A DNA stretch of 64,000 nucleotides from an uncultured Bifidobacteriaceae bacterium (GCA_964449815.1 CAYVGC010000002.1:7-64006); one strand, 5' to 3'; positions 58,338-64,000 are shown, counted from the stretch's first letter. The notes: generated by a model from the letters alone, not told the origin. Translations and numbers: made by a program.

Positions 58338-58540
58338 ATTGATGAAAAGGACCGTTTCCTTTTTCGTCGCGCTGGCATTTTTTCCTGGCGCTGCCGGTGC
58401 ATTTGCGGAAGGCGCGTCCGCCCATTCGGAAGTTCGGTTCAAATGGGCGTGAACACGCGGAGCCGTGAAATTACCCTGCAGCGGCAGTCTGCGGCCCGGA
58501 ATGCCGGTCGTCACGCGCATGGGCAGCGGGAAATTTATCG

Positions 58541-58689
58541 CGGGCTGTGAAATCGTGGGTTCGCTTCAAGAGAAGCGGATTTTGCCCTTGGAGCCTTCGG
58601 CTCGAACCTTGTCCTCGACTGCAAAAAAGCCTGTGGTTCTTGCGTCAAACCGTGGTCATTACTCATCGAACCGTCTCCGTGTGGTGGAA
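58541..58689 (+). pseudogene. ~150-nt remnant of the 3' end of a serine recombinase gene
   Basis: Inverted copy of 63603..63757. A 97-nt core has 2 mismatches, followed by a 17/18-nt divergent patch that shifts the frame, then 21 identical nt. No upstream recombinase coding sequence is present. Confidence 0.7.
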
Positions 58690-58764
58690 TGGTGCGCGGT
58701 GGAGGTTTCGAACCTCCGACCCCTACCGTGTCAAGGTAATGCTCTACCACTGAGCTAACCGCGC
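58690..58764 (-). tRNA. tRNA-Val (anticodon GAC)
   Basis: GCGCGGT TA GCTC AGTGGTA GAGC A TTACC TTGACAC GGTAG GGGTC GGAGG TTCGAAA CCTCC ACCGCGC A CCA. Cloverleaf folded by hand, encoded CCA present. Confidence 0.9.
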
Positions 58765-59173
58765 AACCCGCATCAACATCCATCAACCGACTGGATTTGA
58801 ACGTCAAATCTAAAGTCTCCCAAAAACAGTCCGGCGGCGCAATCCGATTTTAAGCAGCGATGTTAGAGCCTGTCTGAGAACTCCTCTATTGTCGTGGCGG
58901 CAGCCATCTTGGCTGCTAGTGACGCGGCTTCTAGCCGCGAGTTTGGCCGGGAACTGGCGGCAGGATGCCGCCTTCACCGGCAGGCTGGAAGCCCGCCCCC
59001 ACATTTTCAGACAGGCTCTTAGACAAAATGTTAGACACTGCGGTAATCCAACCATATGGCAATGGTTGGCCATCAGATATGGGTGCTGGCTTTCTGACGG
59101 CCATCGGCCAATCGTCCTGTCCGCCATTTTCCGCTGCTTGCATTTCATCGCCCCCGCTTTAGCTTGAGCAGGC

Positions 59174-60544
59174 GTGAAACGATTCGCATCCATGATCCTG
59201 CTGCTGTCGCTGCCGGGGCTGCGGCTGCCAGCGGAGCGCATCAATCAGGAGGGGCGCATCCTTGGCACGCTGCCGGGGGTGACGCATCCCATTTTGTTCA
59301 ACACCACGAATGCGGACGCCGTGGTTGCAGCGATGCAGATTTTCCCGGTGACGAACCCGTGGAACGAATGTATTTCCAACCGGCCCGTGCTGGTGAATTC
59401 AGACGCCATGATCGCGCAGATCATGACGAACCTTTCATCCAACCACCGCGCGCTGGTCGTGGAATACGAAATGAATTTTGTGCTGGTGCCGGACAACCAG
59501 CCGCGCTTGCCGATTGATTTCTTCAATTATGCGGATGAATCCGATTTGGACGGCGGGGCTTCACCATATGGCCTGTATCCAATACCGGCGAACCTGCCCA
59601 TCGAGACATGGCCTTCGCAGACGGGCACGCAGACGCTGGCGCAGTGGCAGACGAACAACGACGGCAGCGACCGGCACGCCGTCATGGTTGTGCCGGAGGC
59701 GGGTTTCATCTGGGAAACGTGGGAGACGATGCTGGTCGGCACAAATTGGGAGGCGTCAAACGGCGCGAAGTTTAATCTGAACACCAACGCTCTGCGGCCC
59801 GCAGGCTGGACTTCGGGCGACGCGGCGGGCTTCCCGATGTTCCCGGCGCTGGTGCGTTACGACGAGGCGGAGCGCGGCATGGTGGAGCACGCCTGCCGGC
59901 TGGTCGTGGCCAAAACGCGCTACAACCAATATCTTTATCCTGCGACGCATTATGCCGCGCCCGCCAACAACACCAGCACGAACCTGCCCGCGATGGGCCA
60001 GCGGCTGCGGCTGAAGTCGGCCTTCGTCATTCCAGCCAACTTCACGACGGAGGAAAAGGCGGTGGTGCTGGGGTTGAAAAAATATGGCGCAATGGTGGCG
60101 GACAACGGCGGCGTGTTTTCCATTTCGGTGACGCCGGACGACCGCTGGCCGACAAATTGTTTCAATGATTTGACCAGCATCAGCATCACAAACTTTGAGG
60201 CCGTCCAGACGACGGGAGCGAATGAAGGGCCGCGTTCGGCGGGTGCGCCGATGGCGAACGCGGGGCCGGACCAGACCGTGAGGTTCGGTCAGGTGGCGCG
60301 ACTGGCGGGTGTGGTGAATTTCTCAAATTCGCCGCCGGCAATCCGATGGAAAACTTGTTCCGGGCCGGGCGCAGTCACGTTCGGCAACGCCATGCAGACA
60401 AACACGACGGCAATTTTCAGCGCGCCGGGAAGCTACACGCTGGAATTGAGCGCGGATGACGGGGTTCATGCGGTGGCGTATGACGCCATGTTCATCACGG
60501 TGACGAACGCCATCAATGTGGCAATCCACGCCCACCGGCAATAA
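59174..60544 (+). CDS. secreted hypothetical protein, apparently frameshifted near its 3' end
   Basis: GTG start and a signal-peptide-like N-terminus. The reading frame continues in the +1 frame at 60516..60704. Confidence 0.55.
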   Translation: MKRFASMILLLSLPGLRLPAERINQEGRILGTLPGVTHPILFNTTNADAVVAAMQIFPVTNPWNECISNRPVLVNSDAMIAQIMTNLSSNHRALVVEYEMNFVLVPDNQPRLPIDFFNYADESDLDGGASPYGLYPIPANLPIETWPSQTGTQTLAQWQTNNDGSDRHAVMVVPEAGFIWETWETMLVGTNWEASNGAKFNLNTNALRPAGWTSGDAAGFPMFPALVRYDEAERGMVEHACRLVVAKTRYNQYLYPATHYAAPANNTSTNLPAMGQRLRLKSAFVIPANFTTEEKAVVLGLKKYGAMVADNGGVFSISVTPDDRWPTNCFNDLTSISITNFEAVQTTGANEGPRSAGAPMANAGPDQTVRFGQVARLAGVVNFSNSPPAIRWKTCSGPGAVTFGNAMQTNTTAIFSAPGSYTLELSADDGVHAVAYDAMFITVTNAINVAIHAHRQ

Positions 60545-60545
60545 T

Positions 60546-60704
60546 GTGAACGTGAGCTGGACCGGCGGCGTGGCACCCTACATCGTGGAAAGATCCGGTG
60601 CGCTGCCGCCAACTTCATGGCGTGACATCGCGACGCCGAGCGGTAACAGCACGAATCTTCCCATTACCAACGCGACCGGTTTTTTCCGCGTGCAAGGACG
60701 TTAG
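60546..60704 (+). pseudogene. detached C-terminal segment of the preceding gene
   Basis: NVNVSWTGGVAPYIVERSGALPPTSWRDI...TNATGFFRVQGR looks like the usual C-terminal beta domain of large secreted PVC proteins. It is in a different frame from 59174..60544. Confidence 0.5.
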
Positions 60705-61471
60705 CCTTTGCGTCCCAAAATAATCAGGGTGCGGACGGGAAGGCGAAACTCGTTGTTTTCAGATCGTATGCCCAGCCCCGCCAGATGCTCTTGGGGCGCT
60801 GCCGCCAGCCGCGCCCGGATTTTCGCCTGCGCTTCAGGTGGGGTGCTTCCGATCTCACACCAGCGCCGGACGGTCAATCCGTCGGACATTTCCGTCAGCC
60901 CGGATTCCAACGCCTCAATTTTGAGGCCGCTCGCCTCAAAAAATTTCCGCCAGCGGATGGCAGTGTGGCTGCGGACATGCGTTGGGTCATGCAGCCTTTC
61001 GATTTCGTGGTTCAAGTCATCAAGAGCCGGGTTTTCGTTGCCTTCCAAATCAATCACGGCCACAACGCCTCCGCCCTTTGCCAGCCGGGCCATTTCTTTT
61101 ACGGCCTTGGCGACATCTGGAAAATGATGCGGGGCCAGCCGCGAAACGACGGCATCGAAGGAGTTGCCCGGGAACGGCACGGCTTCGGCATGGGCGTGAA
61201 CCGGTTCCACTTTCACTCCCCGTGCCTGCGCCAGTTGCTCAAACTGCCGGAGCATGTTGGGGGCGGCGTCAACGCCGACAATCCGGGCGGCTTTGCCCGC
61301 GAAAGACAAAGCCAGATGACCGGGACCGCAAGCCACGTCGCAGACCGAGGCGGGCGGATGCCGCCGCAGCAGTTCGTGCAGCCGCCGAATCGTGGGGCTG
61401 TTGGCATGAACTTCACTCGTGGCGTATTGGCCGGCAATGGCATCAAAATGTTCTGGCGCGGACGTGGTCAT
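60701..61471 (-). CDS. class I SAM-dependent methyltransferase (Methyltransf_11-like)
   Basis: VCDVACGPGHLAL motif I and VVSRLAPHHF. Confidence 0.8.
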   Translation of the reverse strand: MTTSAPEHFDAIAGQYATSEVHANSPTIRRLHELLRRHPPASVCDVACGPGHLALSFAGKAARIVGVDAAPNMLRQFEQLAQARGVKVEPVHAHAEAVPFPGNSFDAVVSRLAPHHFPDVAKAVKEMARLAKGGGVVAVIDLEGNENPALDDLNHEIERLHDPTHVRSHTAIRWRKFFEASGLKIEALESGLTEMSDGLTVRRWCEIGSTPPEAQAKIRARLAAAPQEHLAGLGIRSENNEFRLPVRTLIILGRKG

Positions 61472-62025
61472 ATCAATGACTTTTCAAGATGAAAATTTTA
61501 ATCTTCCGCTCGGGCGCGTCAACCCCGGGACGCGCTAAAGATGGACGCCGTAAGTTTTCTCAAATCAATTGGCAGGGCGGCATCACGTTGTTCGCTTTGG
61601 GCTTCGTGGTGAGGACCAAAGCGGAATTTCCGCCATCTGCCAGCTTGTAATGCCGTGCAGCATCCGCCGGCGTCCCTCCCGGTCATGTGACTTTTGATGA
61701 CCGGTTCTTTTGTCCTCGCTTTGTCGGAAGCAATAAAAACCGAAAGTCCAAAAGTGGACCGATGGTTCTCATCTTGCGCGTCGTTGGGAAAGCCACTGCG
61801 CGCGGGCGGAAGCGGCGGCAAACGCGGACGACGATGCCGTGGTGCATCGAAGAACAGCTCGACAAGCTGCCGTCAGTTTATACGCGAGCGGTGCATCAGG
61901 CCAAGCGCCAACCGGTAATCGGCGCGTTTGCCATATCCATGGCGGCGGGATAGGATGAAGTGTGGCGCGCTGATCCTTCGGAAATTTTCGCTTTGCAATC
62001 GCCCGCGCCGGGGTAAAGTCCGGTT

Positions 62026-62586
62026 GTGAACGTGCGCAACAAACTGCTTTTCGCCGCCGGGTTGCTGGCCGGATTTCTCACGGCCAGCCACGCGGAAAAT
62101 CCCTCAACCAACGGAGTCACCATGAAACTTGACCTCACCACCACCGCATTTGTCGAAGGCCAGCCGATTCCCCGGCGGCACGCGTTCGATGACCAGAATC
62201 TGTCGCCCGATCTGCACTGGTCGGGTGTGCCGCCCGCCACAAAGAGCCTCGCGTTGATTTGCGACGACCCCGATGCGCCGATGGGCATCTGGGTGCATTG
62301 GGTGATCTACGACTTGCCGCCGGACATCACCGGCCTGGCTGAAGACGTGCCGAAATCACCGGAGCTGGCCAGCGGCGCGAAGCAGGGCTTGAATGATTAC
62401 AAGCGCCTCGGCTATGGCGGGCCGTGTCCGCCGCCCGGCAAAGCGCACCGCTATTTTTTCAAGCTCTACGCGCTCGACGCCAAGCCGGATCTCAAGCCCG
62501 GCCTCACAAAAAAGGATTTGCTCAAGGCGATGGACGGTCACGTCATCGCCGAAGGCCAGTTGATGGGAACGTATCAACGGAAATAA
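62026..62586 (+). CDS. YbhB/YbcL-family (PEBP/Raf kinase inhibitor-like) protein, secreted
   Basis: CDDPDAP...WVHWVIYD...GYGGPCPPPGKAHRYFFKLYALD is the PEBP signature. Confidence 0.9.
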   Translation: MNVRNKLLFAAGLLAGFLTASHAENPSTNGVTMKLDLTTTAFVEGQPIPRRHAFDDQNLSPDLHWSGVPPATKSLALICDDPDAPMGIWVHWVIYDLPPDITGLAEDVPKSPELASGAKQGLNDYKRLGYGGPCPPPGKAHRYFFKLYALDAKPDLKPGLTKKDLLKAMDGHVIAEGQLMGTYQRK

Positions 62587-62627
62587 CAACATTGGACCTC
62601 CATTGACCGGCCCGGAGGACAGCGACC

Positions 62628-63227
62628 TTGACCGCCGACAATCCAGCCGCCTTTCTGCGCCTGTTCATCGCCCTCGCCGTCCCGCCGGATGTGCGGCAGG
62701 AAATTGGACGCGCGCAAGGCCAGTTGCGGCGCAACTCCCCGCCGGGAGCCATCCGTTGGACGCGACCGGAACAGTTTCATGTCACATTGAAGTTTCTCGG
62801 CGACGTGCCATCGGCGCAGGTTGCGGCGCTGGAAGCAGCCGTGGCCAAGGTGTGTGTTGGATTCAAAGTTATGAAACTTTCCGCCCACGGCATCGGCTTT
62901 TTCCCCGGTGCGCAGCCGCCGCGCGTGCTCTGGGCGGGGGTGGACGACCTCAGCGGACAACTGGCGGAACTGCACTGGCAGATGGATGCAGCGGTGCGGC
63001 CATTCGCCCCGGCAGAGCGGCTGGAAAGATTTACCGGCCACATCACATTGGGCCGGTTCAAACCGGGGCATCACGCAGCCACGCCAAATTTGCTGGCCCG
63101 CGCCACGGTGCTTCGCGACCGTCACTTTGGCGACTGGCAGGCCGGGGCAGCGGAAATTGTCCGCAGCGAACTTACCGCCGCCGGGGTCATGCACGCGCCG
63201 CTGGCATTGTGTCCGCTGACGGAATAA
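62628..63227 (+). CDS. thpR: RNA 2',3'-cyclic phosphodiesterase (2H phosphoesterase, LigT/ThpR)
   Basis: Two HxT/S motifs, HVTLKFLG and HITLGRF. TTG start. Confidence 0.85.
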   Translation: MTADNPAAFLRLFIALAVPPDVRQEIGRAQGQLRRNSPPGAIRWTRPEQFHVTLKFLGDVPSAQVAALEAAVAKVCVGFKVMKLSAHGIGFFPGAQPPRVLWAGVDDLSGQLAELHWQMDAAVRPFAPAERLERFTGHITLGRFKPGHHAATPNLLARATVLRDRHFGDWQAGAAEIVRSELTAAGVMHAPLALCPLTE

Positions 63228-63527
63228 AATTTTTGCGCGGGCGAATTCGAATTGCAAACGGTCATGAACCGAGGCTGATACTCTTCGTGATCCAAGGTCA
63301 CATCATGTCTAAAGAGTGTTCTTTGCGCTTGCCAGCCCATTTTTTTATCCCATAGTAAGTTTCGTTGACGCCATGCCGATGAAGACCGCAACCTTTGAGA
63401 TTCTGGCAGGCAATGGCCTTGTGCTGGGCGATTATTGATTTTTTCATGCTTCCATTATGAGGAGGGTGACAGAGCGGGGTGCCAACAAGAACTGGCAGTT
63501 TCGATATATTGCATAAGCAATTTTTCA

Positions 63528-63602
63528 GGGCGCTTGGCGCAGTGGTAGCGCTGCTCCTTTACACGGAGAAGGTCGCAGGTTCGAATCCTGCAGTGCCCAC
63601 CA
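63528..63602 (+). tRNA. tRNA-Val (anticodon TAC)
   Basis: GGGCGCT TG GCGC AGTGGTA GCGC T GCTCC TTTACAC GGAGA AGGTC GCAGG TTCGAAT CCTGC AGTGCCC A CCA. Folded by hand, with one G-A mismatch at the top of the anticodon stem. Confidence 0.85.
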
Positions 63603-64000
63603 TTCCACCACACGGAGACGGTTCGATGAGTAGTGACCACGGTTTGACGCAAGAACCACGGGCTTTTTTGCAGTCGAGGACAAGGTTCGAGCCGAACACT
63701 TGTTGGGCGAGAACCCGCTTCTCTTGAAGCGAACCTGAAATCGCGATTTCACCCGCGTTTCTAGCGGTTAAAATCCAATTTTGGAACGGTTCGAGCCAAA
63801 CTTTTGGGTTGCCCGAAAGTGCCTTGATTTGTTCCTCCAACGTCTTTTTGCGGCTCATCAATTTGGCTTTCTCCGTCGTGAACGTCTCTCGTTCAATCAA
63901 GCCGTCCAACAGCGAGTCCAACAGCCGTTGAAGGCGTTGGCTGATTTTTTCGATCTCCGCGCGCTTTTGGGCGGCAACCAGTTCGGCGGATTGGGCGTTC
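63559..64000 (-). CDS. serine recombinase family protein, C-terminal part only (N-terminus beyond window)
   Basis: My translation from the window edge reads NAQSAELVAAQKRAEIEKISQRLQRLLDSLLDGLIERETFTTEKAKLMSRKKTLEEQIKAL...WLEPFQNWILTARNAGEIA...LQEKRVLAQQVFGSNLVLDCKKA. This is the coiled-coil and tail typical of large serine recombinases as I recall them. The last ~15 codons read antisense through the tRNA, so the true stop is uncertain. Confidence 0.65.
   Translation of the reverse strand, partial: NAQSAELVAAQKRAEIEKISQRLQRLLDSLLDGLIERETFTTEKAKLMSRKKTLEEQIKALSGNPKVWLEPFQNWILTARNAGEIAISGSLQEKRVLAQQVFGSNLVLDCKKARGSCVKPWSLLIEPSPCGGMVGTAGFEPATFSV

Follow-up and report, generated by a model that had tools for sequence, protein, structure and literature searches.

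Mirrored flanks of two divergent tRNA-Val genes as probable remnants of serine-recombinase elements that target tRNA genes

The window analyzed here, a stretch of 64,000 nt on contig C2 of a metagenome-assembled genome (MAG; GCA_964449815.1, CAYVGC010000002.1:7-64006), carries near its right end two tRNA-Val genes that are followed by the same sequence in mirrored orientation. Each of these two flanks, hereafter called arms, is in our assessment what decay has left of the tRNA-side end (attL side) of an integrative element using a large serine recombinase (LSR), a reading to which we assign a probability of roughly 0.85. The left remnant has tRNA-Val(GAC) as its integration target (attB side), and the right remnant has tRNA-Val(TAC). 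The MAG searched contains 171 contigs with a total of 4.39 Mb and is 97% complete.

Mirrored remnants at the two tRNA-Val genes

The features on which the reading rests are the following, where P' denotes the element-side half of the attachment (att) site.

58690-58764, minus strand: tRNA-Val(GAC), intact with CCA encoded (ARAGORN; Rfam tRNA, 68.5 bits)
63528-63602, plus strand: tRNA-Val(TAC), intact with CCA encoded (ARAGORN; Rfam tRNA, 66.3 bits)
58596-58694, plus strand: left arm, comprising the core CACCA (the last 5 nt of the tRNA) and the P' arm, identical to the right arm at 95/97 positions (alignment, translation)
58541-58595, plus strand: decayed continuation of the left remnant (..GSLQEKRIL..), with ~68% identity to the right arm (alignment, three-frame translation)
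63598-63696, plus strand: right arm, comprising the core CACCA and the P' arm, which overlaps the recombinase 3' end (alignment)
63559-64000, minus strand: C-terminal remnant of the recombinase, a coiled coil with the tail WLEPFQNW..FGSNLVLDCKKARGSCVKPWS (open reading frame listing, tblastn, protein alignment)
58765-63527, no strand: host segment of 4.76 kb between the tRNA genes, outside both elements (Pfam)

The divergent tRNA-Val pair with its inverted downstream repeat had been described in an earlier sequence-only reading, and ARAGORN, Rfam, a repeat search and alignment all agree on it. The inverted arms were placed by the repeat search at 58577-58762 / 63530-63715, with an additional pair at 58558-58581 / 63712-63735. 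Alignment of both flanks outward from the CCA ends yielded the 97 nt with only two differences, an identity far beyond chance, and 100/102 identical positions when the core is included; further out it reproduced the divergent patch of 17 versus 18 nt, the 21 identical nt and the gapped similarity reaching about 58541 and 63757, all of which that reading had reported. Since the tRNA-Val genes are divergent, the stubs form an inverted repeat around the 4.76-kb segment, which contains a MITE-like repeat (miniature inverted-repeat transposable element), a frameshifted gene for a PKD-like secreted protein, a methyltransferase, a PEBP protein and LigT/ThpR; the genes listed earlier for this segment were likewise recovered with Pfam.

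The arm is found in seven copies in the genome, all of them beginning directly after ..CACCA (base 72, the discriminator A and CCA). This bears out the earlier proposal, in which the sequence is the 3' terminus of a serine recombinase gene adjoining an att site and the repeat for that reason begins where the tRNA ends. The notion that the 97-mer is special to this locus has to be given up, as the sequence recurs downstream of many tRNAs, an outcome that the sequence-only reading had itself listed as a refutation. Five of the seven copies adjoin called tRNA genes (Val-TAC, Val-GAC, Lys-CTT, Met-CAT and a truncated Lys-TTT), whilst one lies beside a Val-CAC-like 3' fragment and one is inverted and located 1.9 kb from the Lys-CTT copy. 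Overall, the arm is carried by ~5 of ~45 tRNA genes, and the copies differ by 9-30% from one another. Contig C123 holds tRNA-Lys(CTT), the arm and a near full-length LSR gene with two frameshifts, whose read-through translation contains the domains Resolvase, Recombinase and Zn_ribbon_recom (PF00239, PF07508 and PF13408, respectively), and it also holds an inverted internal copy of the arm with a conserved flank at C123:8534-8619.

Two of the copies stand on incomplete tRNA genes, namely C86:19651-19732 on a Lys-TTT fragment that extends from the anticodon stem onward, and C1:280-372 on a Val-CAC-like T-arm and acceptor. The motif GTTCTGCGGTG lies ahead of either fragment, and the pair has the appearance of tRNA ends displaced to the far border of islands of a different family.

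The two remnants of the window are of unequal length. The left arm keeps the final ~34 recombinase codons (FGSNLVLDCKKACGSCVKPWSLLIEPSPCGGMV), read towards the tRNA and with one amino-acid change, and ~15 more codons lie upstream of a 1-nt deletion, giving a frameshifted tail of ~50 codons in total, as three-frame translation confirmed for the recombinase tail proposed earlier. The deletion is contained in the 17-nt patch, which is followed by the 21-nt identical block and then by an indel-rich tail. The right arm encodes residues ~339-491 of the LSR (~150 codons), with a tblastn identity of 71%, and it is homologous to the tRNA-proximal inverted-repeat arm of intact elements. The part kept in the window lies downstream of the zinc ribbon, where no Pfam match was obtained, and aligns with residues 339-491 of the LSR family; its reading frame lacks an inherent stop codon and extends to 63559-63561, within the antisense of tRNA-Val(TAC).

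The LSR homology ends at C2:64071, ~65 nt past the window, and the frame there continues into the N-terminal third of a truncated IS630-type transposase. The IS630 stump (C2:64030-64620, window ~64024-64614) comprises HTH_Tnp_IS630 and the start of DDE_3 (~50 residues), shows the usual frameshift and marks the event that cut the right-hand element; beyond it lie ordinary host genes with regulatory functions. Thus, there is neither an intact recombinase nor an island to the right. The C-terminus of a serine recombinase recognized by the sequence-only reading therefore stands, but not the full gene that was thought to run off the window, which is a ~150-codon remnant, nor the recombinase island expected beyond it.

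It was also observed that the remnant at C2:~64071 and one in the relative G011 (G011:C3, L123 ~3242) begin at the same residue, PF(A/S)LRADWADEM, just past the zinc ribbon, although they belong to different tRNAs and different species and have unrelated upstream DNA. The shared start is either a coincidence (roughly 1 in 7 by our own estimate) or a preferred breakpoint.

The recombinase family and its attachment sites

Thousands of homologues of this recombinase are present in the protein database, where they are named only 'recombinase' or 'site-specific DNA recombinase' and are often labeled Verrucomicrobiota or Limisphaerales. The domains PF00239, PF07508 and PF13408 match homologue P0044 and all 120 homologues among the matches listed. 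A family scan with one genome per species returned 80 loci, which span Verrucomicrobiota, many lineages of Patescibacteria (candidate phyla radiation, CPR), Planctomycetes and others, and the tRNA association was counted in the 73 loci whose downstream flank extended over 200 nt or more. In 70 of these 73, a tRNA gene on the opposite strand, and hence convergent, abuts or overlaps the 3' end of the LSR gene, with 29 anticodons and 16 amino acids represented, and all intact relatives have one and the same orientation relative to the tRNA. Conservation of the protein ends at ..KPWSLLVExSxSGG(MV), after which the antisense of the tRNA is read (GFEPAT, GLEPAR, GIEPTCEAWKASVLPLNYAR) for a variable length; since conservation stops there and every homologue reads into the antisense tRNA, the LSR gene has no stop codon of its own.

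Stubs of the C-terminal kind were also found in relatives, at tRNA-Leu(TAG) and tRNA-Lys(TTT) in G011 and at tRNA-Lys(TTT) in G013, while G017 has an intact LSR copy at tRNA-Gly(TCC). The genus relatives possess both tRNA-Val genes without an arm, so both insertions of the window are lineage-specific.

The intact LSR genes are bracketed by inverted repeats of 60-220 nt that are mostly 100% identical, one being the 3' end of the gene up to the tRNA and the other lying 100-400 nt upstream of the start codon. The perfect repeats of 85-86 nt had suggested a transposon resembling an insertion sequence, with the LSR alone between terminal inverted repeats, but this candidate was rejected, as insertions at different tRNAs share conserved DNA on the outer side of the upstream repeat. 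The meaning of that outer flank became apparent in G031 (OY760937), a complete Verrucomicrobial chromosome, in which 198 nt of the outside flank plus 8 nt recur ~30 kb away in inverted orientation with 100% identity. This inverted recurrence of the outer flank at the opposite end of the element shows the upstream repeat to be a copy of attP, internal to the element and inverted. The G031 set consists of attL (tRNA-Leu..GCACCACT-P'), the internal copy (P-GCACCACT-P') and attR (P-GCACCACT-native trailer), which have only the 8-nt core in common and delimit an element of ~32 kb, with a cargo that includes a Replic_Relax protein, a primase, a DUF87/FtsK-like ATPase and a CsgG-like lipoprotein.

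The same nested layout was observed at L029 and L037 (2.1-2.2 kb, almost without cargo), L043 (7.1 kb) and L081 (5.6 kb), with att cores of 3-6 nt reading CTC, GCACC, CAC and AGCCAA, respectively. A second complete att set was also sought in G032 and G017, where either the far end yielded no copy or the internal one is degenerate. The internal inverted attP copy is present in the C123 copy of the own genome and at most family loci, whereas in the window the corresponding part of both elements has been deleted and the attL sides alone survive. Moreover, the left arm continues into LSR coding sequence, and therefore represents an attL-type end; a derivation from an internal attP copy that recombined with a second tRNA is excluded, as the arm does not continue into an attP-type flank.

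The position of the crossover can be narrowed by comparing the three kinds of site. Between attL and the internal attP, identity starts at tRNA position 72 in most loci and tracks the discriminator, whether A, T or G, so that the inverted repeat extends 3-9 nt into the tRNA following the discriminator base, while identity between attR and attP reaches at least C74. Identity from position 72 on the one side and through at least C74 on the other places the crossover within tRNA positions 72-74. The simplest reading of these alignments is that the crossover dinucleotide would be N72-N73, which would be CA for the arms of the window.

Cargo may vary behind a constant recombinase unit, as seen in two metagenome contigs from the same study, L009 and L010, which are identical in the recombinase unit, in tRNA-Val(CAC) and in 6 kb of host flank. 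At 300 nt beyond the internal attP they diverge into FtsK/DUF87 and CsgG island genes in one case and ClpP/HU/CHAP phage-like genes in the other, which reflects either an exchange of cargo or a second element inserted at the border of the cassette.

Origin, decay and competing explanations

From these observations, we infer an order of events in which the attP of the family would recombine with the extreme 3' end of a tRNA gene through a crossover in positions 72-74, so that the body of the tRNA would be retained and CCA with the downstream DNA would be supplied by the element. The recombinase gene would then lie at the tRNA end of the element, convergent with the tRNA, and its last ~28 codons would be inside the P' arm. 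Two elements, or two insertions of one lineage, would have entered tRNA-Val(TAC) and tRNA-Val(GAC), and later deletions, together with the IS630 insertion on the right, would have removed all but the piece adjacent to each tRNA. The survival of this piece is plausibly explained by the harm that a deletion extending into the tRNA would do.

The two arms have not decayed independently. Over their first 80 nt, the Val arms share 97% identity with each other as against 73-91% with the other genome copies, whereas the next ~65 nt are 68% alike as against 87% between the right arm and the Lys-CTT copy. The codon changes in the patch are of the allele type (VLAQQVF on the right, ~VLALEVF on the left) and include a double synonymous change from CTC to TTG. 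Close identity near the tRNA combined with allele-like divergence further out makes the left arm a mosaic. The arms likely owe their homogeneity either to each other, through gene conversion or homologous exchange across the inverted repeat, or to a newer element of the right-arm lineage that recombined with an older stub; the pattern thus suggests recombination between the arms as the homogenizing event.

Several points weigh against an origin of the arms from such elements. Searches of the 97%-complete MAG yielded neither an intact element nor an attR-type end, and tblastn recovered no intact LSR of the family in it, the copy on C123 being the sole near full-length one. The integration history at both tRNA-Val genes is therefore one that we infer from relatives. 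Recombination by this LSR family is itself predicted from sequence comparison. The third codon positions in the arm are fairly conserved, which leaves room for a role of the arm at the DNA level, and a comparison of codon positions between the arm and the upstream coding region gave no clear contrast. Finally, an arm in seven copies in a MAG of 171 contigs makes a mis-join at the arm conceivable, and in two independent Logan assemblies the break falls precisely on the boundary of the repeat.

The likeliest of the competing explanations, improbable as we consider it, is that the 4.76-kb segment with both tRNA-Val genes flips at some frequency, either in a RecA-dependent manner between the 97-102-nt repeats or through a recombinase acting in trans. 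The near-identity of the arms over 102 nt favors it, and ~100 nt of identity exceeds the usual minimum length for homologous recombination; the mosaic pattern also shows that the arms or their ancestors have recombined, and an inversion would be nearly neutral because both tRNA genes and the junction sequences stay unchanged. However, the genome has no intact LSR of the family to act in trans, and recombination of attL with attL, the type to which both arms belong, is not canonical for serine integrases such as the phiC31/Bxb1-type enzymes. Only a single orientation was assembled, and a flip has no evident regulatory logic, since both states retain identical genes and tRNAs. In a synteny comparison, the genes of the segment were located on different contigs in 30 relatives. 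A programmed inversion of the 4.76-kb segment is consequently unsupported, while sporadic homologous inversion between the arms may occur. The site-specific invertible segment envisaged by the sequence-only reading fails on the same grounds, together with the single orientation of the intact relatives.

It is less probable still that the arrangement is an assembly artefact, in which a contig was mis-joined at the repeated arm and the arms do not bracket the segment in one molecule. Such an error would be favored by the number of arm copies and contigs, and two Logan contigs from other runs, which are 100% identical, stop exactly 30 nt into the repeat, as a k=31 assembly would. The runs SRR6183662 and SRR6946416 contain identical DNA. 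On the contrary, the two arms differ at two positions and also distally, with the distal parts fitting their own flanks; at least four longer contigs (20-200 kb) carry an identical ThpR gene 400 nt from the right arm (protein look-up); and a repeat of ~100 nt can be spanned by large-k assemblies.

The least probable explanation, one to which we give hardly any weight, is that the 97-mer performs a host function next to the tRNAs, be it as trailer or processing signal, as terminator or as small RNA, and has been maintained by selection instead of being debris of an element. Stubs beside tRNAs are indeed kept repeatedly in the genome and in G011 and G013, the proximal part is far better preserved than the distal part, and the third codon positions behave as noted above, but few tRNA genes of the genome carry the arm and its copies are divergent, the same tRNA-Val genes of relatives lack it, and it encodes an almost invariant protein motif of the intact recombinase family with synonymous variation at several conserved codons. 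A structured RNA or terminator within the 97-mer was rejected after folding (z of -0.8 and -0.9 against shuffled sequence); no intrinsic terminator was predicted in it, and Rfam matched the tRNAs but nothing in the 97-mer.

Comparison with known systems and neighboring features

The decayed serine-recombinase ends of the window belong to a family that shares the Resolvase, Recombinase and Zn_ribbon_recom build of known LSRs, such as the A118/LI integrase, phiC31, Bxb1, SPbeta SprA and CcrB, and a weak but significant sequence match to the C-terminal domain of the A118 integrase (4KIS/6DNW) was obtained. Short att cores of a few bases and an integrase gene beside attL are also common to both. 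Unlike those LSRs, which use one protein-coding or intergenic site, the present family uses the extreme 3' end (72-76) of many tRNA genes, and it further differs in its stop-less frame and in the internal inverted attP copy of the intact elements.

The nearest published precedent that we found is DsiB of the Dehalococcoides ssrA islands, a CcrB-like LSR of ~540 aa located at attL by the end of a tRNA-like gene (McMurdie et al. 2011, PMC3146451). The dsiB gene always overlaps attL, with its stop codon outside the island, in ssrA or in a neighboring island, and the islands and their remnants occur in tandem arrays (PMC3146451). Their target is the single transfer-messenger RNA (tmRNA) gene, with a 20-bp direct repeat and insertion in the T-loop, and a second, small recombinase, DsiA, is involved (PMC3146451). 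A stop-less LSR at the 3' end of a tRNA-like gene is thus common to both systems, a likeness of layout that was compared by description, whereas no internal inverted attP has been reported for the DsiB islands.

Islands of tyrosine integrases also land in tRNA genes, keep the integrase beside the regenerated tRNA and accumulate remnants (the Islander/Williams framework, PMC4383910). Debris of this kind is present in the same genome too, for instance on C123, where a tyrosine-integrase remnant (C123:5497-6231, ..HDCRHYFISN..) lies on the 5' side of tRNA-Lys(CTT) and the serine-recombinase element on its 3' side. The recombinase is unrelated, however, and tens of bp of the 3' part of the tRNA are duplicated in those islands, as compared with the 3-8 bp in common in the present family. 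Tycheposons of Prochlorococcus are likewise elements at tRNA genes, and 27 of 937 have an LSR instead of a tyrosine recombinase (bioRxiv 10.1101/2020.12.28.424599); they are described mainly for tyrosine recombinases, and the text consulted, from which the systems were compared by description, reports no CCA-end core, stop-less frame or mirrored attP. Invertible segments of the Hin/Gin type resemble the window in having inverted repeats that bracket DNA, and the repeats of intact family members even bracket the recombinase gene, but the window has no recombinase between or beside the arms, which are attL-type ends of two separate insertions.

A published description of the present LSR architecture at tRNA ends was not found in the open-access literature, which is weak evidence of absence. 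The present analysis contributes the branch in Verrucomicrobiota, the full set of att sites from a finished chromosome, the assignment of the core to positions 72-74 and the way in which the elements of the window have decayed. Taken alone, the window feature is ordinary genomic debris of low interest and not a switch, and the source family is more interesting. The stubs suggest that a family of serine integrases targeting tRNA ends is active in free-living soil Verrucomicrobiota, whose elements carry up to ~32 kb of cargo that looks conjugative or mobilizable, hop among many tRNA species and leave stubs. Should the family be undescribed, it would contradict the working rule that tRNA genes are targets of tyrosine integrases only, and island-finding software would miss such elements because that rule is built in. 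The family would likewise provide serine integrases for which a natural attB, the tRNA acceptor end, is present universally, and their specificity may hinge on one dinucleotide.

A broader proposal, which we advance only tentatively and consider doubtful, is that these loci represent a widespread and apparently undescribed class of serine-integrase elements (Verrucomicrobiota, Patescibacteria and others), with the universal tRNA acceptor end as attB, an N72-N73 crossover that lets one enzyme lineage enter any discriminator-matched tRNA and an inverted spare attP that is always kept. By extension, the P' stubs might serve as homology or landing pads that drive recombination, inversions included, between tRNA loci, with the homogenized pair of the window as one case.

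A few minor features were also noted around the arms. The MITE-like element, 158 nt in length, is located at 58865-59022, a short way upstream of tRNA-Val(GAC), and is bounded by terminal inverted repeats of 16 nt (AGAGCCTGTCTGAGAA / TTTTCAGACAGGCTCT); it has only two copies in the genome, the second being at C130:517-674 with 98.7% identity. The gene for the PKD-domain secreted protein (59174-60704) is split by a frameshift near 60520-60545, where relatives, such as G011:C1, align straight across, and the split could be a real frameshift or an assembly error. Lastly, a mini-ORF that encodes only a signal peptide (58343-58452) sits after a GH43 gene. In the relative G018, a full signal-peptide gene begins at the place matching the mini-ORF, with weak similarity (38% over 21 aa, E 0.18), and the earlier suggestion that the mini-ORF may be a gene stump left by a deletion would fit with this gene.

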